A DNA stretch of 64,000 nt, taken from assembly GCF_044324785.1 (NCBI RefSeq), contig NZ_CP172127.1. The stretch is one strand, 5' to 3'. Source of the stretch: Escherichia coli. GTDB taxonomy: Bacteria > Pseudomonadota > Gammaproteobacteria > Enterobacterales > Enterobacteriaceae. Shown here piece after piece: positions 2,214 to 49,948 of this stretch (positions are counted from its first letter, which is position 1; every line of letters starts with the position of its first letter). Under the pieces are notes generated by a model. The model was not told the DNA's origin. It did not search any database and saw only the letters and a program-made list of their open reading frames with translations. Position numbers and translations under genes: made by a program.

Positions 2214-5062
2214 TGACATTCTCGCTTTTCAGACGCCGTGAGGAAAAAGGTACAGCAGAGACCAGGGAACGACCGGAAGCAGAAGCGGGGGCATCTTCAT
2301 CGGCCTTTGTTCCGCCCTGTCCTCCGGGGGCACAGCCCCTGCGACGTCCGGGACAGATGACCCGTGATGCTGAGGCGGCGGTTTATCATGCCGGTCCGTC
2401 GGTTATTGATTTTCTGCCATGGGTGGAATATCTGGATGAGGAGCAGTGTCTGCTGCTTGACGACGGGGTGTCGGTGGGAGCGGTCTATTCGGTGACGCCG
2501 GCCGCAACGGAAGGGCGTACGGAAGAGCGCCTGGCGCAAATCAGGGACATGGTGGAGGATGCCCTCCAGGACAGTTTTGATGAGTACGACACGCATCCCT
2601 GGGTGGTGCAGTTCTACTGTCAGGATGAAAATGATGTGGATGCGTACCTGGACTATCTGAAGGGGTATGTGAAACCCCACGCGCAGGGAACGGCATTCAC
2701 GGAGGCCTGGCTGGGTGAAATGGCCCGCCATCTCAGGGGGATTGCCCGTCCTGAGGGACTGTTTACGGACACCCTGGTCACCGGTCAGCCCTGGCGGGGA
2801 CAGCAGCGACGAACCCGGATGGTGGTTTACCGTCGTATCGGGAAGAACAATAACGATCCGATGTCGCCGGTGGCGATGCTGAACCAGGTCTGCGACCGCG
2901 TGGTGTCCGCACTGGGTGGAGCCGGTATCCGCTGTACCCGGATGAACGGTCAGCAGGTGCACAGCTGGCTGCTGCGGTTATTTAATCCGGCACCGGACTG
3001 GATTGCCCGTGAAGAGCTGTACCGGATGGCCTCACGGGTTGATCCGCGTGAGCGTGGTGATGATGTGATGCCGGTGATGACGGATTTTGCCGAGAGCCTG
3101 TGGTTTAACCCGCCGTATTCCGATCCGGAGAACGGGGTGTGGTGGCTGGACGCCATGCCGCACTGTGCCGTGGTGGTGGAAAAGCTGCGTACGCCGCCGG
3201 AGCCGGGGACCATCACCGGAGAGATGCCCCGTGGGGAAAAAACGGTGAATGCGCTGATGGACACCTTTCCGGAGGGAACGGTGATGTGCATGACCATCGT
3301 GGTGCAGCCCCAGGACACCCTGGAGGACCGTTTCACCCGGCTGTCGAAAAATGCGGTGGGTGAGAACACGGAATCCATCCGGGCGCGTCAGGACGTGAAG
3401 GTGGTGAAGGAGCTGCTGGGGAACCGGCACAAGCTGTACCGGGCAGGGCTCACCTTTCTTCTGCGGGCAGAGGATATGGACAGCCTGAAACGCCGGCGTG
3501 TGGAGCTGACCACGGTGCTTCTGGGGGCTGGTCTGCAGCCGGTGCGGCCTGAGTTTGACGTGGGGCCGCTGAACAGCTGGCTGCGGGCGCTGCCGATGTG
3601 TTTTGATCCGGATACGGACAAAAAGCAGTGGTACACGCGTCTGATGTGGGTACAGCACATGGCAGGATTGTTGCCGGTGACCGGCCGGGATACGGGGACC
3701 GGACATCCGGGGTTCAGTTTTTTTAACCGGGGTGGTGATGTGCTGACTTTCGATCCGCTGAACAAGCTGGACCGTACCCAGAACGCGCATCTGCTGCTGT
3801 TCGGACCAACGGGGGCCGGTAAATCGGCCACGCTGTGTGCTTCACTGTCGCAGGTGATGGCAGTACACCGTCCCCGCCTGTTCATTGCCGAAGCGGGGAA
3901 CTCGTTTGGTCTGCTGGCCGATTATTTTGAGAGTCTCGGGCTGTCGGTGAACAAAATCAGCGTCAGACCGGGAACCGGTGTGACCCTGCCGCCGTTTGCA
4001 GATGCGCATAAACTGGTTGAGGAAGGGCAGGATCTGCAGTGCGTGGATGAGCACTCACTGCCTGATATTGAGGATGAAGCCGGGGATGAAGGGGAGGATA
4101 AACGAGACATTCTGGGCGAGATGGAAATCTCAGCCAGGATGATGATCACCGGGGGGGACCCGAAAGAAGAGGCCGCGCTGAAGCGTGCGGACAGGGCGAT
4201 GATCCGCGAGGCGCTGCTGATGGCCACACACCGGACATACCGTGAGGGGCGGCAGATGCTGCCGGAGGATTTGCAGTCCGCCCTGTGGGAGATCTCCCGT
4301 GACAGCAGCCGTAACGATGTGCGCAATGCAAAGGCGGCGGAGATGGCGGAGTCTCTGGGGATGTTCACCCAGAAGGGGAGTTTTGAGGCGGAGTTGTTCA
4401 ACCGCGAGGGCGAACTGTGGCCGGAAGCGGATGTGACGCTGATTGACCTGGGGCATCTGGCCCGTGAGGGGTATGAGGCACAGATGGCGCTGACCATGGT
4501 GTCGATGACCAACATGATCAATAACATTGCCGAACGTGATCAGTATCTGGGGCGTGACATCGTGTTTGCGGTGGATGAGGCGCATATCGTGACGGTCAAT
4601 CCGCTGCTTTCGCCGTACATGACGAAGGTTGTGAAGATGTGGCGTAAGCTGGGAGCGTGGCTGTGGCTGGCGACACAGAACCTGAAGGATTATCCGGATG
4701 TGTCGGAGAAGATGCTGAATATGGCGGAATGGTGGGTGTGTCTGACGATGCCACCGGAGGAAGTGAACAACATTGCACGCTTTAAATCACTGACGGAGGA
4801 GCAGAAAGCGGTGCTGATGTCGGCGAGTAAGCTGTCCGGCTGTTATACCGAAGGCGTGGTGCTGGCGAAGCAGATTGAGGCGCTGTTCCGTGCGGTGCCG
4901 CCAAGTCTCTATCTGGCGCTGGGCATGACGGAGAAGGAGGAGAAGGCTGAGCGGCGTATGCTGATGAAGGAACACCAGTGCAGCGAACTGGAGGCTGCGT
5001 TCCATGTGGCGCGTAAGCTGGACAGGCTGCGTGGTCTGTCGTCCATGGAGGCGGAGGTATGA
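2213..5062 (+). CDS. conjugative transfer ATPase, VirB4/TraC-like (PFL_4706-like)
   Basis: 949 aa; Walker A GPTGAGKS, Walker B-like FAVDEAH; size and context typical of T4SS VirB4. Confidence 0.9.
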   Translation: MTFSLFRRREEKGTAETRERPEAEAGASSSAFVPPCPPGAQPLRRPGQMTRDAEAAVYHAGPSVIDFLPWVEYLDEEQCLLLDDGVSVGAVYSVTPAATEGRTEERLAQIRDMVEDALQDSFDEYDTHPWVVQFYCQDENDVDAYLDYLKGYVKPHAQGTAFTEAWLGEMARHLRGIARPEGLFTDTLVTGQPWRGQQRRTRMVVYRRIGKNNNDPMSPVAMLNQVCDRVVSALGGAGIRCTRMNGQQVHSWLLRLFNPAPDWIAREELYRMASRVDPRERGDDVMPVMTDFAESLWFNPPYSDPENGVWWLDAMPHCAVVVEKLRTPPEPGTITGEMPRGEKTVNALMDTFPEGTVMCMTIVVQPQDTLEDRFTRLSKNAVGENTESIRARQDVKVVKELLGNRHKLYRAGLTFLLRAEDMDSLKRRRVELTTVLLGAGLQPVRPEFDVGPLNSWLRALPMCFDPDTDKKQWYTRLMWVQHMAGLLPVTGRDTGTGHPGFSFFNRGGDVLTFDPLNKLDRTQNAHLLLFGPTGAGKSATLCASLSQVMAVHRPRLFIAEAGNSFGLLADYFESLGLSVNKISVRPGTGVTLPPFADAHKLVEEGQDLQCVDEHSLPDIEDEAGDEGEDKRDILGEMEISARMMITGGDPKEEAALKRADRAMIREALLMATHRTYREGRQMLPEDLQSALWEISRDSSRNDVRNAKAAEMAESLGMFTQKGSFEAELFNREGELWPEADVTLIDLGHLAREGYEAQMALTMVSMTNMINNIAERDQYLGRDIVFAVDEAHIVTVNPLLSPYMTKVVKMWRKLGAWLWLATQNLKDYPDVSEKMLNMAEWWVCLTMPPEEVNNIARFKSLTEEQKAVLMSASKLSGCYTEGVVLAKQIEALFRAVPPSLYLALGMTEKEEKAERRMLMKEHQCSELEAAFHVARKLDRLRGLSSMEAEV

Positions 5063-5445
5063 TGTGTCTGAAATACCCGAAACCGGAGGTGATGACAGAG
5101 GTCATGCCCGGGGGCAGCGTGTTTTTTCTGCCGCCGCAGGGAAAACCGGGTGTTGCGGATCTGGCGCAACCGCATCTGCAGCGCCTGCGGTCACAGCTTG
5201 AACGCAGGCTGGGTACGCTGCATCGTGTGGTGTGTCAGCCCCAGCGGGTGGGGCAGAGCAGCAGTGTGGCCGTGACAGCAGAAGGGGCGTGTGGCGAGGT
5301 GCATCTTCTGCTGACAGTAGGGGGGCATGAGAGCTGGCCCTCTGAAGAGGAATACCGGCATCCGCGCTGGTATATCCAGGTGGTGGATGCGGCCGATCTG
5401 TTCTACCTGCTGCTCTGGCTGTGTGATGGCGGGCAGGAAGCCTGA
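5059..5445 (+). CDS. hypothetical ICE protein (start overlaps ATPase stop, ATGA)
   Basis: 128 aa ORF translationally coupled to upstream gene. Confidence 0.45.
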   Translation: MMCLKYPKPEVMTEVMPGGSVFFLPPQGKPGVADLAQPHLQRLRSQLERRLGTLHRVVCQPQRVGQSSSVAVTAEGACGEVHLLLTVGGHESWPSEEEYRHPRWYIQVVDAADLFYLLLWLCDGGQEA

Positions 5446-11760: not shown

Positions 11761-11915
11761 AATCATTTTTTTACCATGTTGTCCAGTATTTTTACATAAG
11801 TGAAACATCTGGTGTTGTTTTCTGTTCATCGTGCTGGAAGTTACAGGGCTTGTAATTGAACGGGGAGAGATGTAATTTACGTGCGCAAAAATTTTACTCA
11901 AGGGGGAGAAAACCG

Positions 11916-12179
11916 ATGAAACCGAATATCCATCCTGAATACCGTACTGTGGTGTTCCACGATACCAGTATCGATGAGTACTATAAAATTGGTTCGACCA
12001 TCAAGACTGAACGTGTGATTGAGCTTGATGGTGTCACCTATCCGTACGTAACAATTGATGTTTCCTCTAAGTCGCATCCTTTCTACACTGGCAAACTGAG
12101 AACTGTTGCTTCAGAAGGTAACGTGGCGCGCTTTAACCAGCGTTTCGGTCGTTTTGTTGACACCAAAAAAGGCGCATGA
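11916..12179 (+). CDS. rpmE2: 50S ribosomal protein L31 type B (zinc-independent paralogue)
   Basis: [80 protein letters not shown] is near-identical to YkgM/RpmE2 as recalled; true start at 11916 inside the longer track ORF. Confidence 0.85.
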
Positions 12180-12326: not shown

Positions 12327-12896
12327 GCTGTTGTCTGGGGAGGGAAGGGGGCTGTGTCGGGCTGGGAGCTGTAAGGCTGCGATTGTCCGGGTGATGTCTG
12401 AACATGCGGTATGTTTGCGTTAAACAAGGGGGGAGTATGTGGATACTGATTTTCTGGCTTTCAACACCATATTCAGTGTCATCCAGTGTTGCCAGACAAC
12501 CAACGCTTGCTGTTCATTCTCAGGAGTTCGCTGGCTGAGATGAAGAAGGTGAATGTCGGAGAACTGACCCTGAGGGGGATCTGTGTCTCAAAAGAATAGT
12601 GGGGTAGAGGGAGCGAACCAGGCTGTTTTATCAGGATGTGATTCTGGAGAGTCCGCTCGCCGCAGTCCGGCGACCGAACGGTAGTGAGCGAGCGGACGAG
12701 GAAGCGGAACGTCACAGTTCTTTCATAATGCACCTACGCTGTGTGGTTACATGGGTAAAGGATGAATATCACCATTCTATATCTGTTTCTGAAAAACAGT
12801 TTCGCTTGTTGCCTGTCATTGCCGGCTGGCGTTAGCATACAGAGGCGGTATTATCCCCTGTGATATTACGGGTTATTTTGTTTTGCTCTGTAAGAC

Positions 12897-12924
12897 CTGG
12901 CCAGCTATTATGCTGGCCTTTTTT
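12897..12924 (+). terminator. rho-independent terminator
   Basis: GGCCAGC/GCTGGCC stem followed by T6. Confidence 0.45.
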
Positions 12925-13996: not shown

Positions 13997-14160
13997 ATTA
14001 TCACCTTTTGTCTGACAGTTCATTTGTTGATGCTATCACGATATTCGCGATGCGGTAAATATATCAATATGTTGGTTTATTTGTGTAATACATTATTTCC
14101 CATATGCCATAAATCAGTCTGTTGACGATAGCTTTTTTCTTTTGTTATTCTGTTCCCGCA

Positions 14161-14470
14161 TTAACTGTCGCTTCGGCGACCACCAATGTTCCATGAGGCC
14201 TGTGAGGAACGCCTTCGGGTGGCCCATGTCGCTCCGGCGACCACCAATGTTCCATGTGGCCTGTGAGGAACGCCTTCGGGTGGCCCACGTCGCTCCGGCG
14301 ACCACCAATGCTCCATCTGACCAGTGAGGAGCGCCTTCGGGTGGTCAGTTTTACACCTCCGTAGCCTGAAAGGAGCTGTGCGTGCTGATGGGATATGTTT
14401 CCGGAAGTACGGGTAAATCTGCACACCTTTGCGAGCAGATGTCACCACGGTTTACGTGATGATGAAGGCA
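14161..14470. repeat. composite repeat copy 1: three tandem ~61-bp units (14166-14226, 14227-14287, 14288-14347) plus ~120-bp unique tail
   Basis: Directly visible; about 95 percent identical to copy at 16463-16773; each unit has GTCGC-TCCG-GCGAC hairpin and conserved GAGGAACGCCTTCGGGTGG core. Confidence 0.9.
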
Positions 14471-15074
14471 TTCCGGATTTCGTCCGGTACTTTTACTTTT
14501 TCTCAGCAGACTTTCATAAAAAATGCTTTATGGATCTGCGTCTTAACATATTTTCTGACTTTCCGCATAAGCTTCTTATGACTGTGCGCACGGCATAAGG
14601 CCATTTGAAATTTGGCCGCTTGCGTGTGTACGTGGAGTTTGAAGCAGTGCATGCGTCACTTTTGTCGGCGTTCACGCTGACAAAGTGACGCATGAACGTC
14701 GACTCAACGAACCCGCATAAACAGGCTCTTCACGGGATGTTTTTTAACATTTGAAGAAGTGACCTGACGTGATCGTTTTTTTTCAACTTCATTCTGTTTC
14801 GTAGTGACGTCTCTCCGGTAAAACTTCCGGAAAAACGTCAGTCAACAGAATATCATTGTTTTTTAAGGAGTTTAATGTAGTGAGATGCCGAATCGGCGAT
14901 ATATCTGACAGGCAGATATGTCGGGGGCGACCTTCAGAGGTACAGTTAATTCTGCGGCCGGTTAAACTAACCGGCTTGACACCCCGCAAAACCTGAACAC
15001 TTTGCGTTACCCTGACGCACAGGCACTCACTCACCGAAGGAACGTAACGAAGAACCGTGTCGTCAGGTGAAATG

Positions 15075-15123
15075 CAGATGAATTCTTCTGTTGTGTTCAC
15101 GGCACAACAGAAGAATTCATCTG
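15075..15123. promoter_or_regulatory. perfect 21-bp inverted repeat with 7-bp spacer, 52 bp upstream of recombinase start
   Basis: CAGATGAATTCTTCTGTTGTG - TTCACGG - CACAACAGAAGAATTCATCTG read directly. Confidence 0.5.
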
Positions 15124-15175
15124 TGTTGTGTGCTGCTGTTTTGTTTAGGTCATAGGTCATAAGGAGAATGTACAG

Positions 15176-16081
15176 ATGTCCAGACGTGAGAAATTGCTTA
15201 AAAAGGATCTGGTTGCTCATGTCCGAAAAGAAAAGGGGAGTTTTAAAAAGTTAAGTGACTATACAAGGATTATGCATCGATTCGCTGAAACGCTTGCTCG
15301 TCTGAATGTACAGATTAGTTCTGCTGCACAGTTAAAAGTTCGTCACATTGAATTATATATGAACAGCAGGACGGATGTATCAAAACGAACGAGAGAAAAT
15401 GAAATGTCAGCAATACGCGCGGTTTTACGTCAGGTTGGTAAGAATAAACTTGCCGATCCCAGCCATCCACGGCTGAGTAATAAAGCATTAGGTATTTCAG
15501 GTGAGAGTCGTAAAGGTACGAAAAGTCTGATTACAGACGATCGTTTTCGTGAAATTCTTCAGCGCATTGAACAAAAAGATAAAGGACTCGCTGCAACGGT
15601 TAAATTGTCGCGTTATCTTGGTCTGAGAAATGAGGAGGCCATTCAGTCCGCCAAATCGCTCAAAACATGGAAACAGGCATTAGAACGGGGAGATGAAAAA
15701 TTACGTGTTATTTTTGGTACGAAAGGCGGTCGTGAGAGAATGACCACGATTGTTGACAGAAATAATGTTATTGAGGCTGTTAATTATGCTATTAAATATG
15801 CCGGTGAGCATGACGGGCGATTAATCGACAGAGGTAATCTTAAGTCTGCAATGAATTATTATCTTAACTCATTGCGTCGTTATGGTGAAATGAAAGGCGG
15901 TGATGAGACACCACATAGTTTTCGTTACAGTTATGCCGCAAGTGCAATGAAATACCATATTATGAATGGTTACAGTTATCATGAAGCGCTTGCATTAACA
16001 TCTATGGATCTTGGTCACGGTGACGGCAGAGGACGTTATATCGAGCAGGTATATTGCCAGTTGTTAGGACATGAAGAATAG
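15176..16081 (+). CDS. tyrosine recombinase / phage-integrase-family protein
   Basis: 301 aa; SD AAGGAG; catalytic-type motifs R (LGLRNEE), HxxR (PHSFRYSYA), H...Y (LGHGDGRGRYIEQVY). Confidence 0.65.
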   Translation: MSRREKLLKKDLVAHVRKEKGSFKKLSDYTRIMHRFAETLARLNVQISSAAQLKVRHIELYMNSRTDVSKRTRENEMSAIRAVLRQVGKNKLADPSHPRLSNKALGISGESRKGTKSLITDDRFREILQRIEQKDKGLAATVKLSRYLGLRNEEAIQSAKSLKTWKQALERGDEKLRVIFGTKGGRERMTTIVDRNNVIEAVNYAIKYAGEHDGRLIDRGNLKSAMNYYLNSLRRYGEMKGGDETPHSFRYSYAASAMKYHIMNGYSYHEALALTSMDLGHGDGRGRYIEQVYCQLLGHEE

Positions 16082-16121
16082 CTGTTATTATATTGTAGCC
16101 ATTTTCTTAAAAGGGACCGTT

Positions 16122-16415
16122 ATGAGTGATTATATTTATATGACTATTACTTCTGTTAAAAGTATCACTGACAACTCTCCTTTCTGGTCTTATGATTTAG
16201 GTTATTATCTTTATTCAGGAAAACTTGTGTCTTTTTATTGTGAGGGCATGTCCAACGAATGGGATATGTGTTCTGCTATCGCGGATCATTTTGACGTTGT
16301 CGGAGATTTTTCTTTTGATGTTATTCGTAAGAAAAAAAGAACGCTGATACGTGGGAACTGCGTTTTTCTTTTTGAACAACCCTTTCCGGGAGCGTATAAA
16401 ATACCGCTTTACTGA
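16122..16415 (+). CDS. hypothetical protein co-transcribed with recombinase
   Basis: 97 aa from ATG with SD AAAGGGA; AT-rich. Confidence 0.4.
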   Translation: MSDYIYMTITSVKSITDNSPFWSYDLGYYLYSGKLVSFYCEGMSNEWDMCSAIADHFDVVGDFSFDVIRKKKRTLIRGNCVFLFEQPFPGAYKIPLY

Positions 16416-16462
16416 ATTTTTTTGTTGTTCTTCCACGTAGTTTGTGCTTACAATTTAAACGC

Positions 16463-16773
16463 TAACTTGTCGCTTCGGCGACCACCAATGTTCCATGTGG
16501 CCTGTGAGGAACGCCTTCGGGTGGCCCATGTCGCTCCGGCGACCACCAATGTTCCATGTGGCCTGTGAGGAACGCCTTCGGGTGGCCCACGTCGCTCCGG
16601 CGACCACCAATGCTTCATCTGACCTGTGAGGAGCGCCTTCGGGTGGTCAGTTTTACACCTCCTGAGCCTGAAAGGAGCTGTGCGTACTGAAGGGATATGT
16701 TTCCGGAAGTACGGGCAAATCTGCACACCTTTGAGAGCAGATGTCACTGCGGTTTTCCGTGATGATGAAGGCT
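16463..16773. repeat. composite repeat copy 2 (same orientation as copy 1)
   Basis: Same three-unit tandem structure and tail as 14161-14470. Confidence 0.9.
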
Positions 16774-16901
16774 TTTTTATCACTGTATGACCTGAGTTAT
16801 CTCTGGTCCTTAAGCACATCGTGTTATCGCATTGATGTGTTCACCTGACGGATTTTCCAGTCCGTCAGGGCGGAACGTCCGTCTTTTATCCGGAGGTTCC
16901 A

Positions 16902-17303
16902 ATGTTTATTCCACTTCTGTTTCGCGCAGAGATGCGCCTGACACCTTTCTTTCAGCGACTCAGACAACGTCTGTGTTATCCGGTGAGTCGTGTTCATACA
17001 CAACATCCCTGGTCTTCTCCACAGTTGCGGCACCTTTACTGCACGCCGTGGTTTGTTAACGCCACCGGCAATCTTGCACTCCGTGCCTGCATTGTTTCCA
17101 TTGACGGTTCTTTGCGACACTGCTTTGAGTTCCGTGAAGGCTCTCACAGCCGTGAATACCGTTTCTGGTTTGAGGCGCTTCCTTTGTCGGTACTGCGTTT
17201 TAACACTTTTACCGGTCGAATATCCGATCGCCGTACACTCTCTGCTGCCTCCCGTATGGCCGCGCAGCTTACTTCCTTTCGCTATCGCTTCGGTTTGCGC
17301 TGA
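16902..17303 (+). CDS. hypothetical protein (leading-region-like array)
   Basis: 133 aa, SD GGAGG upstream. Confidence 0.4.
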   Translation: MFIPLLFRAEMRLTPFFQRLRQRLCYPVSRVHTQHPWSSPQLRHLYCTPWFVNATGNLALRACIVSIDGSLRHCFEFREGSHSREYRFWFEALPLSVLRFNTFTGRISDRRTLSAASRMAAQLTSFRYRFGLR

Positions 17304-17455: not shown

Positions 17456-17842
17456 ATGGGACTCGATATTTTTTTCCTTGGGCGTGATCGTGTTTGTGTT
17501 ACCGACGCAGTGGTATCGGTACCGGAAACGCGGGAAGTGGGGTACTTTCGCAAGGTTAACCCACTGATTGCCTGGTTTGAGAAGCATTGTGGACCGCTTG
17601 AAAATGCCGTGGAGCGTCCGGTTTCCAGAACGGAACTGGAGGCACTACTGAGCGATCTTGAATGCCTTACGCCGGAGAACTGCCGGGAATTCTTCCCCAC
17701 AACAGAAGGATTCTTTTTTGGCTCTCAGGAGTATGACCAGTATTACTGGAAGGATGTTGAGGACGTGAAGTCGTGGGTCAGAAGCACGCTTGATTCGTTT
17801 GATTTTGAACGAAAAATACTGTTGCTCTGGGCATGGTGGTAA
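17456..17842 (+). CDS. hypothetical protein (leading-region-like array)
   Basis: about 128 aa, SD GGAGA upstream. Confidence 0.4.
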   Translation: MGLDIFFLGRDRVCVTDAVVSVPETREVGYFRKVNPLIAWFEKHCGPLENAVERPVSRTELEALLSDLECLTPENCREFFPTTEGFFFGSQEYDQYYWKDVEDVKSWVRSTLDSFDFERKILLLWAWW

Positions 17843-18261: not shown

Positions 18262-18771
18262 ATGAAAACGAAAACTTCTGCACCTGCTGTATATGTTGGT
18301 ACCTGGGCTAAATACAACAATGGCAGCATAGAAGGATGCTGGTTTAATGATTTAACCGTTTTTGAAACTGAAAGCGATTTTTTATCTGCGGCCCGTAAGT
18401 TTCATCAGGATGAAAAAGATCCTGAATTTATGTACCAGGATTATGAAAACTTTCCTTCGGGAATGGCTTCAGAATATGGTTTCAACTGGGCTTATGTTGA
18501 AGGTTATCGTCTTGCCCGTGAAGAAGGCTGTGAAGATGCATGGTATGCATGGGTTTCTAATACCGGTGATACCTGTTTCGAACAGTTCAGGGAGGCGTGG
18601 CTTGGTGGTCCTTATGACAGTGAACTCGAGTTCGCCGCGCAGTACGTGGATGAATGCGGTTTTCTGTCAGAGGTACCTGATACTGTTGCACGCTATTTTG
18701 ATTATGAGGCTTTTGCGCGCGATTTGTTCATGGAACTGGATTTTGTCGACGGACACGTTTTCCATCGGTAA
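18262..18771 (+). CDS. ardA: antirestriction protein ArdA (DNA-mimic inhibitor of type I restriction)
   Basis: 169 aa, very acidic; N-terminal AVYVGTWAKYNNGSIEGCWF and C-terminal YFDYEAFARDL motifs match ArdA family as recalled (e.g. Tn916 Orf18, ColIb ArdA). Confidence 0.8.
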   Translation: MKTKTSAPAVYVGTWAKYNNGSIEGCWFNDLTVFETESDFLSAARKFHQDEKDPEFMYQDYENFPSGMASEYGFNWAYVEGYRLAREEGCEDAWYAWVSNTGDTCFEQFREAWLGGPYDSELEFAAQYVDECGFLSEVPDTVARYFDYEAFARDLFMELDFVDGHVFHR

Positions 18772-21412: not shown

Positions 21413-24328
21413 TTACTGAGTCAGTTTTTTTATCAGGTCGTGAATTTTATCACCTGAAAACTGGGTCATGAAAGTTATCTTTATGGATTTACTGATTTGT
21501 TCGAAGAGTTTCTGTGCATGTTTTATTTTATCGCGTTCTTCATGTCTGAGTTCACGTTTGCCATCAACATTTTTGGTTTCAATAATAAGGTTCAGATAAT
21601 CACCCTTTGACGTGTTTACAACATAAGCGAAGTCAGGGGAGTAAGTGTATCCTCCCGCTACAGGAATTTTTATTGAATTTTTGGGGATCTTTGTGAAGAC
21701 AATGACTGACCTGACCTCACCCTCTGTCATATTGAGTTTTTCAAGTTCTGAATCATAAAATACTTCTTCAAAAAGATAAGAGTCCAGTGGAGGGCTTGTA
21801 TTATCCTGTAAAACGCCAAGATCACTTGACAATACATCAGCAAGATAACCGCCGTCTGCATTGGTGAATTTCGTGGGATGGACAGTTCCTGATATTACAT
21901 TATACCCAAGGCTGAATTTACTGAACGAGTTATTAAGCAAATACTTGCTGAAACCAGATTTAATTTTTCTGATTGTCTGAATGTTAAGGTATTCAGTTAT
22001 ATTTATGATGTCTTTTATATCACAAAAAACCTTATGCATGGTGTCATGTTTGACAAAAATAGTCTGTGATAATTTATCAAGGAATTCACGATAGCTCATT
22101 GTGTTTATTTTGTGAAAATTATCCTCATCAACACTGAGAATGCTTTTCGACATTGCCGTATCATTATGGATATAAATTCTTTCAATACGAGTATGAGCAC
22201 CGGATTTGGTAAATCTGTCTGCTTCTTCCAGCATAAACGCTCTGAAAAGGGATAAAAACTCACGTTCACTTTTTATTTTATACTCAATCACGACCTTTTG
22301 ATTGATCAAGTCCCATAGTTCTTTCAGCTCACTGAACTTACCAACACGCATTTTAGTGCGTCTTTTTCCATCAGAGGCTTTTTTTATTTTGCCTGGTTTC
22401 ACTCCTGCAGGAAATGCTGCCGGATATCTGGCTTTTAAGCGGCTATAGGCATCTGAATCTTTGAAGTTATCATTATCATCAATGATCTCATCACCAAAAA
22501 TTTCATTCAAGAGTGTTCTGGAGGAAAGCTCCGGATATTGAGACAGGATTTTATCCTTAAGCTCCTGAGTAAACTTACCTGGAACAGTCTCTTTGAAAGA
22601 ACTATCGTTGATCTCTTTGACAAGAGAATCGACAAAATCTTTTTCTGTAAAATCAACATAATAGTTGAGGGTAAAATTGCGGTCTTTCACACGACACATG
22701 TATTCATTCACCGGAAGACGTAAACCACGCCCTACTTCCTGAAGTTTAGATGTGGTGCTACCGCTCGAACGGAGCTTACAAATCTGAAAGACATTTGGGT
22801 TATCCCATCCCTCACGCAACGTCCATTTAGAGAAAATGAAACGGCGAGGATTTTCTAAAGACAATAGAAGCTCTTTATCATGAAGGATTTCGTTGATTTC
22901 CTGCTCAATTTTATCATCTTTATCACTATTATCTTTTGAAAAATAACCACCATGAACAGAAGATATATCCTTAACAGTTTTTTCAAGGTAGTTTCTGTAA
23001 AACTCATCTTTTTCTGTTTTTAACAGTTCATTTGCTTCTGCCAAAACGTATTCTTCGAACTTAGTTTTCAGGCTTCCTGCAATATCATTACCATCACGAT
23101 AGCCTTCAATGTCATCAATGAAGAAAAGAGTAAGAGGTTTTATGCGTGGCCTTTGTGTCAGATACTCTTTTTCTAACTTAAAGTGTTCTTTGACAGCTTT
23201 ACGTATCATGTTATCAGCAAGTGTCTGATCGTAAGAATAGGGGTTTATCGAACTACCAATTTTTAGCTCAATACCATTACTCAACACTGCTGTATTCTTA
23301 TTTAAAGCATCAAGAGTTAAATCATGGATCGCACTATGCGTCTTAGATAGTGATTCACCTTTGGCTAACTTAAAAATTTTTTTATTATTATTTTCGTTCA
23401 GTTCAAATGTAGCTTCTTTTCCGTCAGATTTGACCAACTTGAGGTTGGCATTACCATCACCAACTATATCCTCAATGTATGCATCAATACCTTTAACAAG
23501 ATCTTCATTGAAGGCATCTACGGCTGTAAGACGATAAACTAAGTTCTTATAGCCTTCACTAAAGGTTGCACCATAGCGGATGATATATTGGGCATTAAAT
23601 TTTTGAATATGTTCCCATGTCTTTTTACCAGTAGGAAATTTATGAGGCTCATCAATGATAATGAATGGTTTTATCGCACTAAGTGCAGAAAATGGGGTAT
23701 CAAACTGATTATTAAGCAAGCCAACATCATAAGTGTCAGTTAAAGACTTAGAGTTAATCATCCCTGAATTGATCACAAGAATGTGTATATATTTCTTATT
23801 GAAATTACTTGCTTCAACAAAATCATGGATAGCTTGAGGTATATACGATTTTGTATTTTTACCCGAACGTTTCTGACTTTCAACAACGTAAGTCTTTAGT
23901 TCACGCTCGTAATCATCTCGAAAGTGTTCTTTTATAGCATCGCTTTTTAAAAAGTTAACGGTTCCGGCTTTGATCGATAGGGTAGGAACAATGATGATAA
24001 ACTTGTTAATACCAAATGATTTGTTCAGGTCAAAAATTGTTTTGGTGTAAGTATAAGTTTTACCTGTACCTGTCTCCATAGAAACATCAATTACGTTGCT
24101 TTTAGCATCGTAATTATCTTTTGAGTGCTCAATACCATTGAACTCCTGAACATTTTTTATGTTGTTGTAGTATTGTTGTTCAGATAGATTCAGTTCTGGA
24201 TTAGCTAACAGGCGAATTGCAACATGATCCGTCTGATGAGGTATGGCGGATACAAAGACATTCATTACCGAATCAACGCCAGCCTTTTGATGAGGTAAAT
24301 TTTTTTCGAATGTGAACCCTTTAGACAT
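21413..24328 (-). CDS. res: Type III restriction endonuclease, Res subunit
   Basis: 971 aa; helicase motifs METGTGKTYT and IIIDEPH; C-terminal PD-(D/E)xK-like region; size typical of EcoP15I-like Res; AT-rich. Confidence 0.85.
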   Translation of the reverse strand: MSKGFTFEKNLPHQKAGVDSVMNVFVSAIPHQTDHVAIRLLANPELNLSEQQYYNNIKNVQEFNGIEHSKDNYDAKSNVIDVSMETGTGKTYTYTKTIFDLNKSFGINKFIIIVPTLSIKAGTVNFLKSDAIKEHFRDDYERELKTYVVESQKRSGKNTKSYIPQAIHDFVEASNFNKKYIHILVINSGMINSKSLTDTYDVGLLNNQFDTPFSALSAIKPFIIIDEPHKFPTGKKTWEHIQKFNAQYIIRYGATFSEGYKNLVYRLTAVDAFNEDLVKGIDAYIEDIVGDGNANLKLVKSDGKEATFELNENNNKKIFKLAKGESLSKTHSAIHDLTLDALNKNTAVLSNGIELKIGSSINPYSYDQTLADNMIRKAVKEHFKLEKEYLTQRPRIKPLTLFFIDDIEGYRDGNDIAGSLKTKFEEYVLAEANELLKTEKDEFYRNYLEKTVKDISSVHGGYFSKDNSDKDDKIEQEINEILHDKELLLSLENPRRFIFSKWTLREGWDNPNVFQICKLRSSGSTTSKLQEVGRGLRLPVNEYMCRVKDRNFTLNYYVDFTEKDFVDSLVKEINDSSFKETVPGKFTQELKDKILSQYPELSSRTLLNEIFGDEIIDDNDNFKDSDAYSRLKARYPAAFPAGVKPGKIKKASDGKRRTKMRVGKFSELKELWDLINQKVVIEYKIKSEREFLSLFRAFMLEEADRFTKSGAHTRIERIYIHNDTAMSKSILSVDEDNFHKINTMSYREFLDKLSQTIFVKHDTMHKVFCDIKDIINITEYLNIQTIRKIKSGFSKYLLNNSFSKFSLGYNVISGTVHPTKFTNADGGYLADVLSSDLGVLQDNTSPPLDSYLFEEVFYDSELEKLNMTEGEVRSVIVFTKIPKNSIKIPVAGGYTYSPDFAYVVNTSKGDYLNLIIETKNVDGKRELRHEERDKIKHAQKLFEQISKSIKITFMTQFSGDKIHDLIKKLTQ

Positions 24329-24330
24329 GA

Positions 24331-26367
24331 TTAGTTCCTTACCACCAAATCTAAATCAATAGATTTTTTATTAGCATAACTTTTTAGTGCTTCATTGAGT
24401 TCCATCTGTTTCGCACTTTCGAAGTTGCTGCCATAAAATACAACTTTGTTAGGGGCAAAGTCTTTGTCTGCATCCAGCTTTTGAAGTAAAGCTTTCAAAG
24501 CCTCACTTGTGAAATTAGGCGCAATTAGATATAGCCGACCATCGCACAAGTGTGCTTTGTAGCCATTAAGGTCAATATCTTCAATTGGTGTTGTTAGCAA
24601 GCTGCCATCATACACGCACCATGTCGTCAATAGAGTGTCATACTGCTCTGGTGTCAATACAGCATCGTCAAAGAAACTAAGATTAGAAAGCGTAAGTTCA
24701 GACTCATCTTTCACTCGAAAATCATGAACTGTTTCAAATATTTTAAATCCCAAATCTCCATTATAATTAGGATTATCTTTTTTCAGCTTTTTTCCTGCCT
24801 TAATAATTCTGTCTTTTGTTATATTGAAGATGGATTTATACCCTTCTTTATAGGCTTGTTTCTTTTTATCTGTTTCTTCATCTAATTGAACACAGATGAA
24901 GTTTCTTTTCCTGCCGTCTTCAATATTTAACTCCAGAATACCATGAGCTGTAGTTCCAGAGCCAGCAAAAAAGTCAAGATAAATGTCTTTATCTTCGGTT
25001 TTTACTGAACCAAATAGTGTTTTTATTAAACTTGTTGGCTTCGGGTAGGAGAAATATCCTTTCCCACCAAAAAGATTTTCAACCTCAACACCACCATCAC
25101 TTTTAGTTGAAATAATTGATCTTAGTAAAAACTCTTCAACTTCATCTAAAAATTTAACCGAACTGGGTTGGGTGTTTTCTGTACTGGCAAACCAAATTCC
25201 ACCACAAATAACGCTACCATCATGTAGTTTTTTGATATCTGCATACTTTCCATCTATTCTTTTTGCAATATGATTAAAAGTGCCTTCTTTCCAACGCCAG
25301 CCTCTGTCTGGGATTTTGACAGGGTTATTAGTCAAAGGGTGCAATACTTCATACGTGGGTCCAAATGAATCTGCATTAGGCCAGCTCATATTAATTTTAC
25401 CCCATGGCCTATAATCTTCGTTCAAACAGTTGTAAAGAGTAATTCCACGATCATATCCGTTGGAGCTGTAGAATTTTTTGAGTTGCTGCTCTGCTTTATC
25501 TAATGGCACCTTCTCCTTTTTTAACTTTTCAATAAACTGATATACATCATCAATACCATCTTTCCGCATTAAAAATTCTTTACTTATTTCGTTATTCTTC
25601 GCATAAGCAAGGATGTACTCATGGATATTACCAATACCCTTATCATTTTTAGGGATACGTTTATTCCATACAATATTTTCTATGAAATTTGCTTCGCCAA
25701 AAATTTCATCACAAATAGTTTTAAGTTGATTTAATTCATTTTCGTCAATCGAAATAAATATCACACCATCTTCACGTAGAAGCTCACGAGCAATATATAA
25801 ACGAGGATAAATGAACGTTAACCATGCGCTATGGCTGCTTGAACCATTCGTGGTAAATTCAAGTATACGTTTAGCCTCATCAAGATCGATACCTGCCAGA
25901 TCAGAAAGCTGTTCAGGTGTAAACTTGCGATCATCGTTATAGGCGAATCCATCCTTACCTGTATTGTATGGTGGATCAATGTAAATCATCTTCACCTTTT
26001 CAGAGTAAGCATTAACCATATGCTTCAATACTTCGAGGTTATCCCCTTTGATTAACAGATTCTGACTGTTTTTGTTCTCTTCACGTTGGTTATGGTCTTT
26101 ATCTTCGGAGAGTAATGTCTTCGGCGGCAAGTTAGCTAACAGACGGGCATAGGATTTACCAAGCCAGTTCAGGCTGTATGATTCTTTGGAGAGTTCAACA
26201 TCCGATGATTTGACGATTTCAAGCAATTTTTCCTGAATGAACGCTCCATTTTTATCAAAACACTGTGGAAAGTTAGCCTTTAAAATCGCAAGCTGTTTAC
26301 TGTTTGTGGTTTCAGTTTCAGAGAAAAGAGTTTCTTTTTTCAGTTGAAATTGGGGTTGTGTATTCAT
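24331..26367 (-). CDS. mod: Type III DNA methyltransferase, Mod subunit (N6-adenine, beta-class)
   Basis: 678 aa; motif IV IYIDPPYN precedes motif I FFAGSGTT; own SD GGAGG 6 nt before ATG; immediately upstream of res. Confidence 0.85.
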   Translation of the reverse strand: MNTQPQFQLKKETLFSETETTNSKQLAILKANFPQCFDKNGAFIQEKLLEIVKSSDVELSKESYSLNWLGKSYARLLANLPPKTLLSEDKDHNQREENKNSQNLLIKGDNLEVLKHMVNAYSEKVKMIYIDPPYNTGKDGFAYNDDRKFTPEQLSDLAGIDLDEAKRILEFTTNGSSSHSAWLTFIYPRLYIARELLREDGVIFISIDENELNQLKTICDEIFGEANFIENIVWNKRIPKNDKGIGNIHEYILAYAKNNEISKEFLMRKDGIDDVYQFIEKLKKEKVPLDKAEQQLKKFYSSNGYDRGITLYNCLNEDYRPWGKINMSWPNADSFGPTYEVLHPLTNNPVKIPDRGWRWKEGTFNHIAKRIDGKYADIKKLHDGSVICGGIWFASTENTQPSSVKFLDEVEEFLLRSIISTKSDGGVEVENLFGGKGYFSYPKPTSLIKTLFGSVKTEDKDIYLDFFAGSGTTAHGILELNIEDGRKRNFICVQLDEETDKKKQAYKEGYKSIFNITKDRIIKAGKKLKKDNPNYNGDLGFKIFETVHDFRVKDESELTLSNLSFFDDAVLTPEQYDTLLTTWCVYDGSLLTTPIEDIDLNGYKAHLCDGRLYLIAPNFTSEALKALLQKLDADKDFAPNKVVFYGSNFESAKQMELNEALKSYANKKSIDLDLVVRN

Positions 26368-45494: not shown

Positions 45495-47003
45495 ATGTCC
45501 CTGAATCCCACCGATGAACAGTCAGCCATCATTCACTGGCAGGGGGAAAAACTGGTGGTGAATGCCTTTGCCGGTACAGGCAAAACCAGCACACTGGTGC
45601 AGTTCGCCGCAGCCTGCCCTGAGAGCCGGATGCTGTATCTGGCCTATAACCGCGCGATTCGTGATGAGGCGGAGCGCCGGTTTCCCTTTAATGTGGAGTG
45701 CAAAACCTCCCATCAGCTGGCGTATTCGCGGTTCGGAAAGCATTTCCGGCATCGTCTGGTGCCGGGGCTGTCAGTGACGGATGTAGCGAGAAAACTGAAC
45801 ACCCGCTACTGGACGCTTGCCCGTGTTGCCATGACCGCGCTGAATCAGTTCATCTGTTCGGCGGACGTGGCGCCCGGAATGCAGCATATGCCGCCTCCCG
45901 ACGAGATGAAGGGCATGTCGCCACAGGATGCGCTGCGTGCCGTGCAGATCCTCTGGCATGAAATGAGCAATCCGGATGGCAATTTTCCGGTCACTCACGA
46001 CACCTATCTGAAGCTCTATCAGCTTTCCTCACCGGATCTGTCACGCAGGTGGGATACGATCCTTTTTGATGAGGCCCAGGATGCGAATCCGGTGACGTCC
46101 GCACTGGTGCTGGGGCAGCGGTGCAGGGTGGTACTGGTTGGCGACCGTTACCAGCAGATTTATCGTTTTCGTGGTGCCAGCAATGCACTGTCGCATCCGG
46201 CACTGAACGGGGCGGACCGTCTCTGGCTGACGCAAAGTTTTCGTTTTGGTCCTGCCGTGGCCGGGGTGGCCAGCCAGTTACTGAAGCGTGCCGGCGAGAG
46301 CCGTGAGGTGACCGGCAGGGGCGGGGATGATGAAGTGCTGACGGCAGGTGAAATGCGTGCGCGCGTGAAGGCAGGGAAGATGACCGGTCACAGGGCGATA
46401 CTGAGCCGGACGGTGGCCGGTGTGATTGGCACCGCACTGATGGCGGCAATGCGTGGCAGGAAGGTTTACTGGGTGGGGGGCATTGAAGGCTACAGAACGG
46501 AGGCACTGGAAGATCTTTACTGGTTTCAGATGGATATGCCGGAGCGGATGCACAGTGACAGACTGCGGAAGGACTACCGGGGTTTTGACGAGTACCGTCA
46601 TATTGCGAAGGTGACGAAGGATGTGGAAATGAATCAGTCCATTCGTCTGCTGGAGCTGTGCTTTCCGCTGCCGAAGAAACTCGAACTTCTCAGAAAGCAC
46701 ACCGTCACGAATGAACAGGAGGCGGATATCACGGTCTCAACGGCACACCGCAGTAAGGGACTGGAGTGGTCACTGGTGGTACTCGATGATGATTTTCAGG
46801 ATATCACCGACCCGCTGATAAGCGAGCAGGAGCGGCGGGATGAAACCAATCTGCTCTATGTGGCGGTCACCCGGGCGCGCAGAACGCTGGTTCTCAATGA
46901 ACTCATGCAGCAGCTGACGGAAGCTGCCGGCGATGGTGGTGCACCCGGAAACGCGCCGGTGCAGGGGAAGGAAGACGATGGTGTGGAGGGAGAGGATGTT
47001 TAA
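45495..47003 (+). CDS. UvrD/PcrA-like superfamily I DNA helicase
   Basis: 502 aa; Walker A FAGTGKT, Walker B ILFDEAQD; SD GGAGGA. Confidence 0.75.
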   Translation: MSLNPTDEQSAIIHWQGEKLVVNAFAGTGKTSTLVQFAAACPESRMLYLAYNRAIRDEAERRFPFNVECKTSHQLAYSRFGKHFRHRLVPGLSVTDVARKLNTRYWTLARVAMTALNQFICSADVAPGMQHMPPPDEMKGMSPQDALRAVQILWHEMSNPDGNFPVTHDTYLKLYQLSSPDLSRRWDTILFDEAQDANPVTSALVLGQRCRVVLVGDRYQQIYRFRGASNALSHPALNGADRLWLTQSFRFGPAVAGVASQLLKRAGESREVTGRGGDDEVLTAGEMRARVKAGKMTGHRAILSRTVAGVIGTALMAAMRGRKVYWVGGIEGYRTEALEDLYWFQMDMPERMHSDRLRKDYRGFDEYRHIAKVTKDVEMNQSIRLLELCFPLPKKLELLRKHTVTNEQEADITVSTAHRSKGLEWSLVVLDDDFQDITDPLISEQERRDETNLLYVAVTRARRTLVLNELMQQLTEAAGDGGAPGNAPVQGKEDDGVEGEDV

Positions 47004-48525
47004 GCGGTTCAGACGTATGCTGCCCGGCACAAAGGGCACGGAGCCTGGCGTGGTCGCGCCGGTGATACCGGCAGGGTTTTATGCGCCGCTCACGGCAGAG
47101 GCACTGTTATCACCAGAGCACAGGGAGCTGAGGCTCAGGCAGGTCTGGGATAACAATCCGATGCCCCGTGATGTATACGACAGGATGTGCCTTGAACCAC
47201 TCAGCCGGCTGCTGCTGAACACCCAGAACGTCCCGGCAACACGGGAAGGACGGTGGTCCCGTGCCGGTGGATTTGGTGATCTGACGGTACTGTACACCAC
47301 GTATGCCGTTCGTCTGGCAAGAGGGTACATGTTTCCACCGGATGCGACCCCGGAAGACCAGGCGGCTCAGGCCGCAGTCTGGCATGCGGTGATTTTCTGG
47401 TCAGCGCTGTTTTACCACCTGCCCCTGCTGGCGCACCTTGAGGGGGAACTGCTGAGTGGGCGGGGCTGGCAGCCAGGAATTTCTGTGCCTGACGAACCTT
47501 TCCGTTTCCGGTTCAGGAAGACGGCGCCGCAGGGTACGGAAGCGCAACAACTTGCGGCCCTGACTGCCGGCACGCTGTTACCGGACGGCGCAACGGCCTG
47601 GCTTGTGACGGCGCCGGGCGCACTGCAGAATCTGGCCGGGGCGCTCTGGCATCAGCATCCCGGGATGGCGCTGATTCGTGATGTGCTGCAGGAAGCGGCA
47701 AGGCAGACAGAGAGTCCGCTGAATACCTGCGCTGTCACTGCGCCGGTTACTGCGGAGGCTTCAGCAGACATTCGTCCTGCTGACCCGGTGGTGACCGGCA
47801 GCACGGACAGTGTGGTGGCAGTCACTGAGGTGCAGCCGGCAGAGGAGGTGAAGACTGAGAGCGTGCAGACAGAGACTGAAGGTGGTGGTGAGTCCGCCGG
47901 GGCGTCAGAGGTGCCGTCCGCACAGCAGGAACTGACGGTTCAGACAGCGCCAGTGGTGACGGCAGATGATGAAGCGGTCAGTGCTGCTCCTGCGGATCAG
48001 GACACAGCAATGCTGCTGAGTCTTTTTTCAGCAGATGAGTCCGAAACTGCTGAACCTGAAAACAGTATTAAATCGTCAGCCGATCGGGACGGCCAAAGTG
48101 ACGTACCGGCAGTACAGGGAGAACAAACCAGCGTTATTTATCCGGAGGGCGAAGCAGATACGGAAGAGGTGGATTTTATTACTTGGCTGAAATCGGGGTT
48201 GTCATCGGGGATGATTGAAATAAATACACCTTCCGCGAGAGTGCATTGTATTGCGGGGTATGTTTTTTTGTGTGTCCCGGATATTTTTTATCTGTATCAG
48301 AAAATGACGGGAAGCCGTCGTGACCGCAGGAGTGTTCAGGCGTTGTTTGAACGTTCCCGTATTCACAAAATCCGGGAAGGTGAGCGTTTTTTCAGCCTGC
48401 ATCTGTATAGTGTACCTGACAGAACAGGGAGTTATAAAGCTGTAAGCGGATATCTGGTTAAAAGCCGTTATCTGTGTGGTTATAACGCAGTGCCCGGGGA
48501 CAGTGAATACATTGCTTTTCCATAA
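46996..48525 (+). CDS. hypothetical protein with acidic low-complexity linker (helicase-associated)
   Basis: about 509 aa from ATG at 46996 with SD; overlaps helicase stop by 8 nt. Confidence 0.45.
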   Translation: MFKRFRRMLPGTKGTEPGVVAPVIPAGFYAPLTAEALLSPEHRELRLRQVWDNNPMPRDVYDRMCLEPLSRLLLNTQNVPATREGRWSRAGGFGDLTVLYTTYAVRLARGYMFPPDATPEDQAAQAAVWHAVIFWSALFYHLPLLAHLEGELLSGRGWQPGISVPDEPFRFRFRKTAPQGTEAQQLAALTAGTLLPDGATAWLVTAPGALQNLAGALWHQHPGMALIRDVLQEAARQTESPLNTCAVTAPVTAEASADIRPADPVVTGSTDSVVAVTEVQPAEEVKTESVQTETEGGGESAGASEVPSAQQELTVQTAPVVTADDEAVSAAPADQDTAMLLSLFSADESETAEPENSIKSSADRDGQSDVPAVQGEQTSVIYPEGEADTEEVDFITWLKSGLSSGMIEINTPSARVHCIAGYVFLCVPDIFYLYQKMTGSRRDRRSVQALFERSRIHKIREGERFFSLHLYSVPDRTGSYKAVSGYLVKSRYLCGYNAVPGDSEYIAFP

Positions 48526-49872: not shown

Positions 49873-49948
49873 TGGTGCCCGGAGGCGGAATCGAACCACC
49901 GACACGGGGATTTTCAATCCCCTGCTCTACCGACTGAGCTATCCGGGC
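49873..49948 (-). tRNA. pheV: tRNA-Phe (anticodon GAA), variant T-stem
   Basis: 76 nt ending CCA; matches E. coli tRNA-Phe as recalled except T-stem GGTGG/CCGCC instead of CTTGG/CCGAG (compensatory). Confidence 0.9.

Follow-up and report, generated by a model that had tools for sequence, protein, structure and literature searches.

STAXI RNA, a pseudoknot repeated two or three times near genes of the kinds listed in its name ("Ssbp, Topoisomerase, Antirestriction, XerDC Integrase"), was described by Weinberg et al. in 2010 (Genome Biol 11:R31, PMC2864571), where the choice between action as RNA and action as single-stranded DNA was left undecided. Catalogued since then, it is among the commonest RNA elements of the MPF_G-type integrative and conjugative elements (ICEs) of Enterobacterales, which spread virulence and metal or drug resistance; of all RNA genes in MPF_G-type ICEs, 80% are STAXI or radC (Cury et al. 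2017, PMC5587801). A second RNA family, EFASI ('Enterobacteriaceae, Frequently Around STAXI and Integrases'; Rfam RF02957), is described as lying several hundred nucleotides (nt) after STAXI and just before an integrase gene. Here we analysed a 64,000-nt stretch of Escherichia coli DNA (contig NZ_CP172127.1 of assembly GCF_044324785.1; referred to as the window), in which an earlier note, made from the letters alone, had pointed out two direct repeats of ~310 bp bracketing a tyrosine-recombinase cassette. Judged by their sequence, both 310-bp repeats are STAXI RNA, the pseudoknot element already catalogued in 2010, and their recognition is a rediscovery: the locus shows no new kind of element, but an already-known one in textbook arrangement. 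STAXI, as a sense-strand RNA leader or small RNA, is probably a multivalent docking platform for a factor that controls the DNA-handling genes of the element carrying it.

The two repeats share 288 nt at 96% identity in the same orientation (14166–14453 and 16468–16755), much as first described (~310 bp, ~95% identity), and their likeness extends, with a 1-nt offset, up to 14472 and 16775 (repeat family D4). Tandem Repeats Finder resolved a 61-nt period, present 2.9 times per copy with 93–94% matches (14166–14344 and 16468–16646), in agreement with the three tandem ~61-bp units originally proposed. Both copies contain the hairpin GTCGC-TYCG-GCGAC and a conserved core, GAGGAACGCCTTCGGGTGG. The Rfam model of STAXI (RF01728; curated gathering score 40.5 bits) matches copy 1 on the + strand at 68.6 and 61.9 bits and copy 2 at 68.6 and 66.3 bits, and the E-values of these matches (1e-10 to 3e-13) mean that the repeats are not chance resemblances. 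One 310-nt copy gives two matches because every unit of the beta-type variant found in the window has the small 5′ hairpin, P1, which STAXI as described has on its first unit; otherwise this is the same element, with two to three pseudoknot repeats, UUCG loops, an Enterobacterales host and single-strand-binding protein (ssb), topoisomerase, anti-restriction and integrase genes as neighbours. The expected neighbourhood is found here in full: an Integrase_1 gene after copy 1, ardA in the module of copy 2, and, in the same ICE outside the window, a third copy between topB and STY4534-ssb.

Copy 1 (14161–14470, + strand; delimited by Rfam, repeat and tandem analysis and pseudoknot covariation) comprises three canonical 61-nt pseudoknot units (14166–14226, 14227–14287 and 14288–14348), a degenerate unit Y (about 14349–14414) and a terminal unit Z (14415–14469). 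Copy 2 (16463–16778, + strand; Rfam) is built alike, from canonical units at 16468–16528, 16529–16589 and 16590–16650, unit Y at about 16651–16716 and unit Z at 16717–16772, followed by a run of six T residues (16773–16778). Units Y and Z together correspond to what had been taken for a separate ~120-bp tail; they are two further, degenerate pseudoknot units within the Rfam model, whose alignment puts the last of them on the model's third pseudoknot. An assembly duplication, which the earlier note had allowed for, is ruled out, because the entire 2.8-kb stretch with both copies is present at 99–100% identity in three independent complete E. coli genomes and because the copies differ at ~12 positions and have unlike upstream flanks.

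Each STAXI unit is an H-type pseudoknot, in which the linker GUUCC pairs with GGAAC in a bulge of the second stem. Two stem-loops per unit had been proposed; the GTCGC hairpin stands, while the second is not a simple stem-loop but half of the pseudoknot. An exact-pattern scan of contigs from one genome per species yielded 120 loci, all from Enterobacterales except four chance matches, and also picked up five viral contigs. Among 122 unique units, with linkers of the form G-N-U-N-C and bulges of the form G-N-A-N-C, both free positions pair in 94%, compared with 67% (maximum 72%) when partners are permuted, and they do so in at least seven Watson-Crick combinations. Covariation was tested on an alignment of 51 diverse units that was built without structural information: 92.2% of cells were paired, against 79.0% after shuffling (none of 500 shuffles reached 92.2%) and 30–56% in slid controls. 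The pseudoknot helix was 99.6% paired, with compensatory changes at four of its five pairs, and the outer stem 95.7%, with compensatory changes at all six; both sides had changed and pairing was kept at 16 of 19 pairs. The small 5′ hairpin scored lower (76% paired) because the aligner shifts its loop. Unit Z, found in 87 of the 120 arrays, shows linker–bulge pairing of 6 bp or more in 69%, versus 20% with permuted partners. A full copy is a run of five consecutive H-type pseudoknots, three 61-nt units, each after a small hairpin, and two degenerate ones, and in the unit alignment its loops and bulges hold highly conserved nucleotides.

Such covariation bears directly on the idea that proteins bind the tandem 61-bp units as duplex DNA, in the manner of iterons, a centromere or operators, which tandem conserved repeats near the replication and partition genes of an element with its own dnaB, parA and parB might suggest. 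Compensatory substitutions hold the pairing in three helices, including the pseudoknot, while the sequence itself changes, and the G·U asymmetry described below is strand-specific. Unit number and spacing also vary, from one to three units plus a class with an inserted hairpin, and the arrays are invariably placed with a promoter on one side and a gene on the other, in a single orientation. Protein-binding arrays are accordingly an extremely improbable explanation of the repeats. The class with the inserted hairpin represents a second STAXI architecture, in which a single unit carries an extra hairpin, GTATCAGGATGATAC, between the linker and the second stem; it was seen, with its own promoter, in loci L003–L006, L012, L014, L017 and others and in L137–L144. 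In phage-like contigs, EFASI, Integrase_1 and c4 antisense RNA genes come after it in that order.

The fold is assigned to the + (sense) strand because its non-Watson-Crick pairs are nearly all G·U there (G·U exceeds A·C by 19 to 4 in the pseudoknot and by 29 to 3 among the three innermost pairs of the outer stem) and would be mismatches on the complement; 50 of the 51 units share one particular G·U pair. The inner hairpin is C(UUCG)G, a loop taken as favouring RNA (Weinberg 2010, PMC2864571). Upstream of copy 1, a consensus scan identified a sigma-70-type promoter (14122–14151, + strand; TTGACG, an 18-nt spacer and a TG-extended TATTCT), with a predicted transcription start at about 14158–14160. 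A promoter-like sequence precedes copy 2 (16425–16454, + strand), with the −35 hexamer TTGTTC, an 18-nt spacer and the −10 hexamer TACAAT (16449–16454); at the equivalent place, the homologous regions of Erwinia (L019) and Mixta (L071) have TTGAAA or TTGAAG and then TATTAT. Across the collection, the usual arrangement is a near-consensus sigma-70 promoter that ends about 15 nt ahead of the first hairpin; a promoter-like match lies before 83 of 124 arrays, compared with 3.5% of control windows, typically as TTGACA/G, 17 nt and a TAAAAT-like hexamer, and in 63 of the 83 the −10 hexamer ends 46–50 nt ahead of the first core. Published data include STAXI transcripts of about 228 nt from strand-specific RNA-seq in Pectobacterium (PMC4710047) and a transcript detected in E. 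coli by reverse-transcription quantitative PCR, with high abundance in vesicles (PMC12370729). On the strength of the G·U strand bias, the UUCG loop, the fixed promoter and these transcripts, STAXI very probably acts as a sense-strand RNA. Structured non-coding RNA genes had been one of the candidate explanations offered at the outset, and this is the one that the Rfam match, the covariation, the sense-strand G·U pairs, the promoters and the transcripts bear out.

Several copies of Frpo occur in the F and ColIb plasmids, and the multiple, dispersed STAXI copies resemble them, which counts in favour of another of those candidates, that the repeats act as single-stranded DNA in conjugation, as Frpo/ssi-like promoters or priming sites for ssb and ardA. 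Such a role had already been raised by Weinberg 2010 (PMC2864571), and the neighbours ssb, ardA and topB are genes that plasmids express early from their leading regions (PMC11541004). Both Frpo/ssi (of F and ColIb-P9; Samuel et al. 2024, PMC11541004) and STAXI are dispersed, structured non-coding repeats before genes of the ssb/ardA type. However, Frpo/ssi is one long imperfect hairpin that rebuilds −35 and −10 hexamers and, to drive its genes, has to form on their template (transferred) strand, whereas STAXI consists of short pseudoknots that fold on the mRNA-sense strand, has no such hexamers in its stems and is preceded by an ordinary promoter in duplex DNA. Frpo/ssi is also widespread in the leading regions of conjugative plasmids, whereas STAXI is nearly absent from plasmids: STAXI-like sequence was found in 674 of 5,426 complete E. 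coli genomes, at 1007 chromosomal places and 3 plasmid ones, and in 25 of 72,556 plasmid records. Of these plasmid records one, pSGI4, was inspected; it has genes of the ICE backbone and is apparently ICE SGI-4 in circular form. STAXI, EFASI and Integrase_1 occur together in phage-like contigs as well, beside c4 antisense RNAs, and the transcripts cited above likewise speak for RNA (PMC12370729, PMC4710047). We consider action as single-stranded DNA very unlikely.

Of the 116 unique arrays with enough downstream sequence, 105 are followed by a co-oriented gene from one of six protein families; a gene of these families in the opposite orientation follows none. Integrase_1 recombinases follow 57 arrays (homology beginning a median of 804 nt downstream), a STY4534-family ICE replication protein 23 (median 216 nt), the family containing ORF133 (open reading frame, ORF) 14 (median 193 nt) and three small families the other 11. 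The window shows two such standard modules side by side, STAXI-EFASI-integrase-ORF97 and STAXI-leader-ORF133...ardA. ORF133 (16902–17303, + strand; placed by clustering and tblastn, and hypothetical according to the Prokaryotic Genome Annotation Pipeline, PGAP) belongs to a conserved family whose genes come directly after STAXI in 14 arrays from other species, and opens the module whose last gene is the anti-restriction gene ardA (18262–18771, + strand; PHROG 2059 at 3e-26; PGAP name in the identical locus L001). The gene ardA, noted earlier as following copy 2, does not do so directly but is the fourth gene of its module, 1.5 kb downstream and after three small ORFs.

Between copy 2 and ORF133 lies an attenuator-like leader (16844–16904, + strand), made up of a GC-rich hairpin, CCTGACGGA-TTTTCCAG-TCCGTCAGG, then GCGGAACGTCCGTC and TTTTAT, then CCGGAGGTTCCA-ATG; GTTCC in this last segment is able to pair with an upstream GGAAC. 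The same layout is found ahead of STY4534, ORF133-like and other genes at 38 unique loci (e.g. L007, L011, L019, L022, L047 and L131), with a pyrimidine-rich segment that includes a U-tract and is complementary over 7–15 bp to the ribosome-binding site and start-codon region. In a direct complementarity test the helix sequestering the ribosome-binding site averaged 9.5 bp, compared with 7.7 bp when partners were permuted (maximum 8.8). RNAalifold recovered just part of the GC-rich hairpin, because indels misalign the sequestering helix. An Rfam scan of the leader matched no family, and a regex scan of the window, with a pattern requiring T5 or more, gave no further copies. Leader sequences vary from one gene family to the next while their logic is constant. 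Most arrays outside E. coli have no U-tract after unit Z, and the attenuator-like leader comes directly behind that unit. The accounts of STAXI that we found in the literature mention neither the promoter at its fixed distance, nor the strict shared orientation with genes of six families, nor this leader.

In Bacillus, leader attenuation in the TRAP-trp, HutP-hut and PyrR-pyr systems depends on proteins that recognise reiterated RNA motifs. The STY4534 and ORF133 modules have the same order of parts as TRAP-type leaders (promoter, repeated motifs, terminator or sequestering hairpin, gene), although the STAXI repeats are ~45-nt pseudoknots and those of TRAP-type leaders are triplets or single hairpins; the likeness is one of possible mechanism, not of family membership. 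By such a mechanism STAXI would act as RNA, as the folded 5′ portion of the primary transcripts made from the ICE's DNA-handling modules. Many of these transcripts would stop at U-tracts or terminator-like structures after the last pseudoknot, or at the attenuator-like hairpin, and early stopping would generate an abundant STAXI RNA of ~300 nt, while in read-through transcripts the gene would come after a hairpin in which its ribosome-binding site is sequestered. After copy 1, a consensus scan found a terminator-like hairpin, CCGGATTTCGTCCGG, with a T-rich tract (14473–14497, + strand), a putative site for such stopping. The repeated, sequence-conserved pseudoknots most plausibly constitute a multivalent dock for one trans-acting factor, a protein of the element or of the host, and the docked factor would set termination, stability or translation of the three modules jointly and post-transcriptionally; the same STAXI RNA could double as a sponge-type small RNA. 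While we favour the docking platform as a whole, its leader/attenuation component is put forward tentatively, at somewhat less than even chances.

Multi-site sponge RNAs such as CsrB/CsrC and RsmY/Z, and ToxI, a tandem pseudoknot antitoxin RNA followed by a terminator and a gene, provide a different comparison. STAXI has repeated modules in common with both, and the repeats of ToxI are also pseudoknots. Unlike CsrB/CsrC-type sponges, however, STAXI has no enrichment of CsrA-type GGA loops, and unlike ToxI-type repeats its 61-nt units are non-identical; the genes that follow it are Integrase_1, STY4534 and ORF133-like, with no match to a toxin family of the ToxN, AbiQ or CptN type. CsrA-type binding was dropped as a candidate, GGA being present at about chance level, as was mimicry of a Shine-Dalgarno sequence by the bulge, a likeness lost in variants with GAGAAAC.

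A STAXI that works only in this way, as a stand-alone trans-acting small RNA with no cis role, would be an abundant sponge or decoy whose three to five pseudoknots titrate a host or element protein, such as one for defence, RNA binding or DNA handling, and would adjoin establishment genes merely as part of the same early-expressed region. The near-consensus promoters, three almost identical copies per element (raising dosage), the U-tract or terminator that directly follows unit Z in all three copies, and the strongly conserved loop and bulge nucleotides would all suit such an RNA, as would the ~228-nt transcripts in Pectobacterium (PMC4710047) and the abundance in E. coli vesicles (PMC12370729). 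Yet it leaves unexplained why arrays are co-oriented upstream of six gene families (105 of 116, none opposite) and why most arrays outside E. coli, without a U-tract, continue into the attenuator-like leader. We regard a purely stand-alone role as unlikely; one STAXI RNA could serve as both leader and stand-alone small RNA.

Several observations weigh against the docking leader that we prefer. The element proved to be known and annotated, as the earlier note had thought conceivable, but not one with an established function: no experiment demonstrating a function of STAXI was found in the searchable literature, and no binding partner was identified, loci of 1–15 kb being too short for co-occurrence. 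In Integrase_1 modules STAXI lies 300–1000 nt from the gene, with EFASI in between, which makes a poor simple cis leader. A clear intrinsic terminator follows the array in 36 of 114 arrays (25 of these 36 cluster at 150–225 nt), compared with 15.5% of control windows, and because so few arrays have one, a discrete small RNA and a leader are not distinguished. The −35 hexamer of copy 2 is weak, and this promoter, which failed the strict scan, was read from the sequence. G·T pairs are tolerated in DNA too, and the G·U asymmetry taken alone is compatible with a single-stranded-DNA role of the + strand. Folding of both strands, as the earlier note had proposed, was carried out on single sequences as RNA and as DNA; minimum free energies of whole copies (z −1.2 to −2.0) were barely beyond those of shuffled sequences and showed no strand preference. 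These folds were set aside for the comparative data because the program pairs units together and cannot model pseudoknots.

Were the pseudoknots a common dock for one regulator, this would explain the coordination of ICE establishment genes and would offer a target for interfering with the spread of ICEs. The locus provides testable handles in E. coli: a predicted start, an architecture of five pseudoknots, three co-evolving copies per element, a fixed place before recombinase, replication/ssb and anti-restriction modules, and a previously unlisted hairpin that sequesters the ribosome-binding site.

The layout of the window, with 96%-identical direct repeats flanking a recombinase that has an intact catalytic signature, invites the explanation that the two copies are recombination sites, or the borders of an excisable or invertible Integrase_1 cassette. 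The strong association of STAXI with Integrase_1 genes would fit such borders, and RecA-dependent deletion between 290-bp repeats is physically possible. However, half of the arrays head non-recombinase genes, most Integrase_1 loci have a single STAXI, the upstream one, and what is conserved in the repeats is RNA-type pairing. When a deletion junction was simulated by joining the left flank, a single STAXI and the right flank, none of the 53 E. coli genomes matching it had it uninterrupted, and the palindromes at 15075–15123 and 14650–14694 come nearer to typical core-site geometry than the repeats do. Related ICEs are also informative: L127 (STAXI at 1890–2270 and 4686–5066) and L128 (1973–2353 and 4709–5089) retain the order STAXI-EFASI-integrase-STAXI-ORF133...ardA, with a recombinase allele ~79% identical to that of the window and a different small gene after it, but the STAXI types on the two sides are divergent (78–88% identical). 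L127 has an alpha/alpha pair and L128 an alpha/beta pair, against beta/beta in the window, and because STAXI types vary in this way among relatives with the same layout, the 96% likeness is not taken as a sign of cassette borders. Cassette borders are highly improbable, and the bracketing of a cassette, for which the repeats were first singled out, comes about because two standard modules, each headed by STAXI, are neighbours.

The third copy of the same ICE, which also speaks against borders, lies ~20 kb away from the window pair; it was located in strain TUM9803 (L131, NZ_CP135671.1, 10145–10451, − strand), where the topB terminator and STY4534-ssb flank it. This copy is about 92% identical to those of the window and comes with a promoter of its own (TTGACT...TAAATA). 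On sequence grounds the three STAXI copies of one element look homogenised, and the high identity of the window copies appears to reflect homogenisation or module exchange in this lineage rather than a general property. The allele of copy 2 in strain ECCNB12-2 (L128) is 98% identical and has two 61-nt units in place of three, which suggests gain or loss of STAXI units, together with exchange of modules by recombination at STAXI.

Only two ORFs had been recognised between the copies; an EFASI-like RNA, a 45-nt inverted repeat and a 21-bp palindrome lie there too. The EFASI-like RNA (14878–15031, + strand) scores 46.3 bits, below the family cut-off of 51.2 bits, and has the position described for EFASI, after copy 1 and ahead of the recombinase gene; the corresponding position scores 77 bits in the allelic modules of L127 and L128 and 97–120 bits in phage-like contigs. 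A reverse search with the recombinase protein alone retrieved 11 viral-contig loci, of which all 11 have EFASI upstream and nine have STAXI at threshold, with c4 antisense RNA downstream in most. Because it also occurs in viral (phage-like) contigs, the STAXI-EFASI-integrase trio is not tied to conjugation; a BLAST search of a phage genome collection gave no STAXI match at the sensitivity of that method.

The recombinase itself (301 aa, 15176–16081, + strand) belongs to Integrase_1 (Pfam PF12835 at 5e-56, PF12834 at 2.5e-23) and has an intact catalytic signature, with R151, K183, H247, R250, H281 and Y288/Y293 invariant in its relatives; a sequence search against solved structures detected none for it. 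The 97-aa ORF that follows (16122–16415, + strand; hypothetical in PGAP) is without an NCBIfam or PHROG match, and related elements have a gene for a zinc-finger protein on the minus strand in its place. NCBIfam, PHROG and solved-structure searches of the recombinase and the small ORFs returned no functional names besides Integrase_1 and ArdA.

STAXI, EFASI and Integrase_1 are found together in ICEs and in phage-like islands alike, and a further conceivable role of STAXI (with EFASI) is that of the RNA part of a ribonucleoprotein with Integrase_1 or another DNA-handling protein, serving as a scaffold or guide for recombination or establishment, or of a regulon-wide RNA 'operator' that switches on establishment modules after entry; we consider this quite improbable. 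The recombinases of the IS110 family are reportedly guided by bridge RNAs (the work of Durrant et al., 2024). Like a bridge RNA, STAXI is a structured non-coding RNA encoded immediately upstream of a recombinase gene. IS110 recombinases are of the DEDD/serine type, however, whereas Integrase_1 is a tyrosine recombinase, and STAXI also heads non-recombinase genes; complementarity between RNA loops and target DNA, a trait of bridge RNAs, was not seen for STAXI, for which no dedicated search was made.

The inverted repeats lie in the approach to the recombinase gene. The 45-nt repeat (14650–14694; CATGCGTCACTTT...AAAGTGACGCATG) was identified from the sequence, and its arms, GCGTCACTTT and AAAGTGACGC, recur with 8-nt spacers ~250 nt before Integrase_1 genes in other genera (L004, L017, L034, L082 and L105). 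The stretch 14500–15066 has 87–93% identity to unannotated DNA of some E. coli plasmids. The second is a perfect 21-bp inverted repeat with a 7-bp spacer (15075–15123; 100% complementary), 52 nt before the start codon, which was flagged as terminator-like in a consensus scan and is a candidate operator, terminator or tyrosine-recombinase core site. No lox-like palindrome is shared by the regions before all Integrase_1 genes, and a perfect inverted repeat is present there in few other loci. A copy of a half-site of the 15075–15123 repeat, 83% similar, lies 2.6 kb downstream at 17698–17720.

The window is part of an ICE of the SPI-7/PFGI-1 type with a MOB_H relaxase, which is integrated at tRNA-Phe and has three STAXI copies. 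It carries conjugation genes of the TIGR037xx series, a type IVb pilus operon, the PFGI-1-class MOB_H relaxase gene (46933–48525), an XerC-like integrase gene (48556–49668) and, at its integration site, tRNA-Phe (49873–49948). We take it to resemble ICEEc2 of avian E. coli, and the tellurite/urease islands of O157 are presumably degraded relatives. A type III restriction-modification system (res, 970 aa, and mod, 677 aa; 21413–26364, − strand) is cargo of the ICE a few kb from ardA, and is absent from the corresponding position in strain TUM9803. Upstream of copy 1 are an ORF for a type-B ribosomal protein L31 (ykgM-like; 11856–12179), inside the ICE, and a weak SorX-like Rfam match (28.6 bits; 12854–12924), which recurs at the same place in L127 and L128. 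Plasmid pB39_V has ykgM and a Hok/Gef gene in the same neighbourhood, adjoining urease genes. A further tyrosine recombinase and its adjoining gene lie at 32128–33573 and 34332–35534 (both − strand); the adjoining gene is annotated as pilV, a shufflon pilus tip adhesin, in the near-identical element of TUM9803. The ICE has three different tyrosine recombinases: the XerC-like integrase, this shufflon-type enzyme and Integrase_1.

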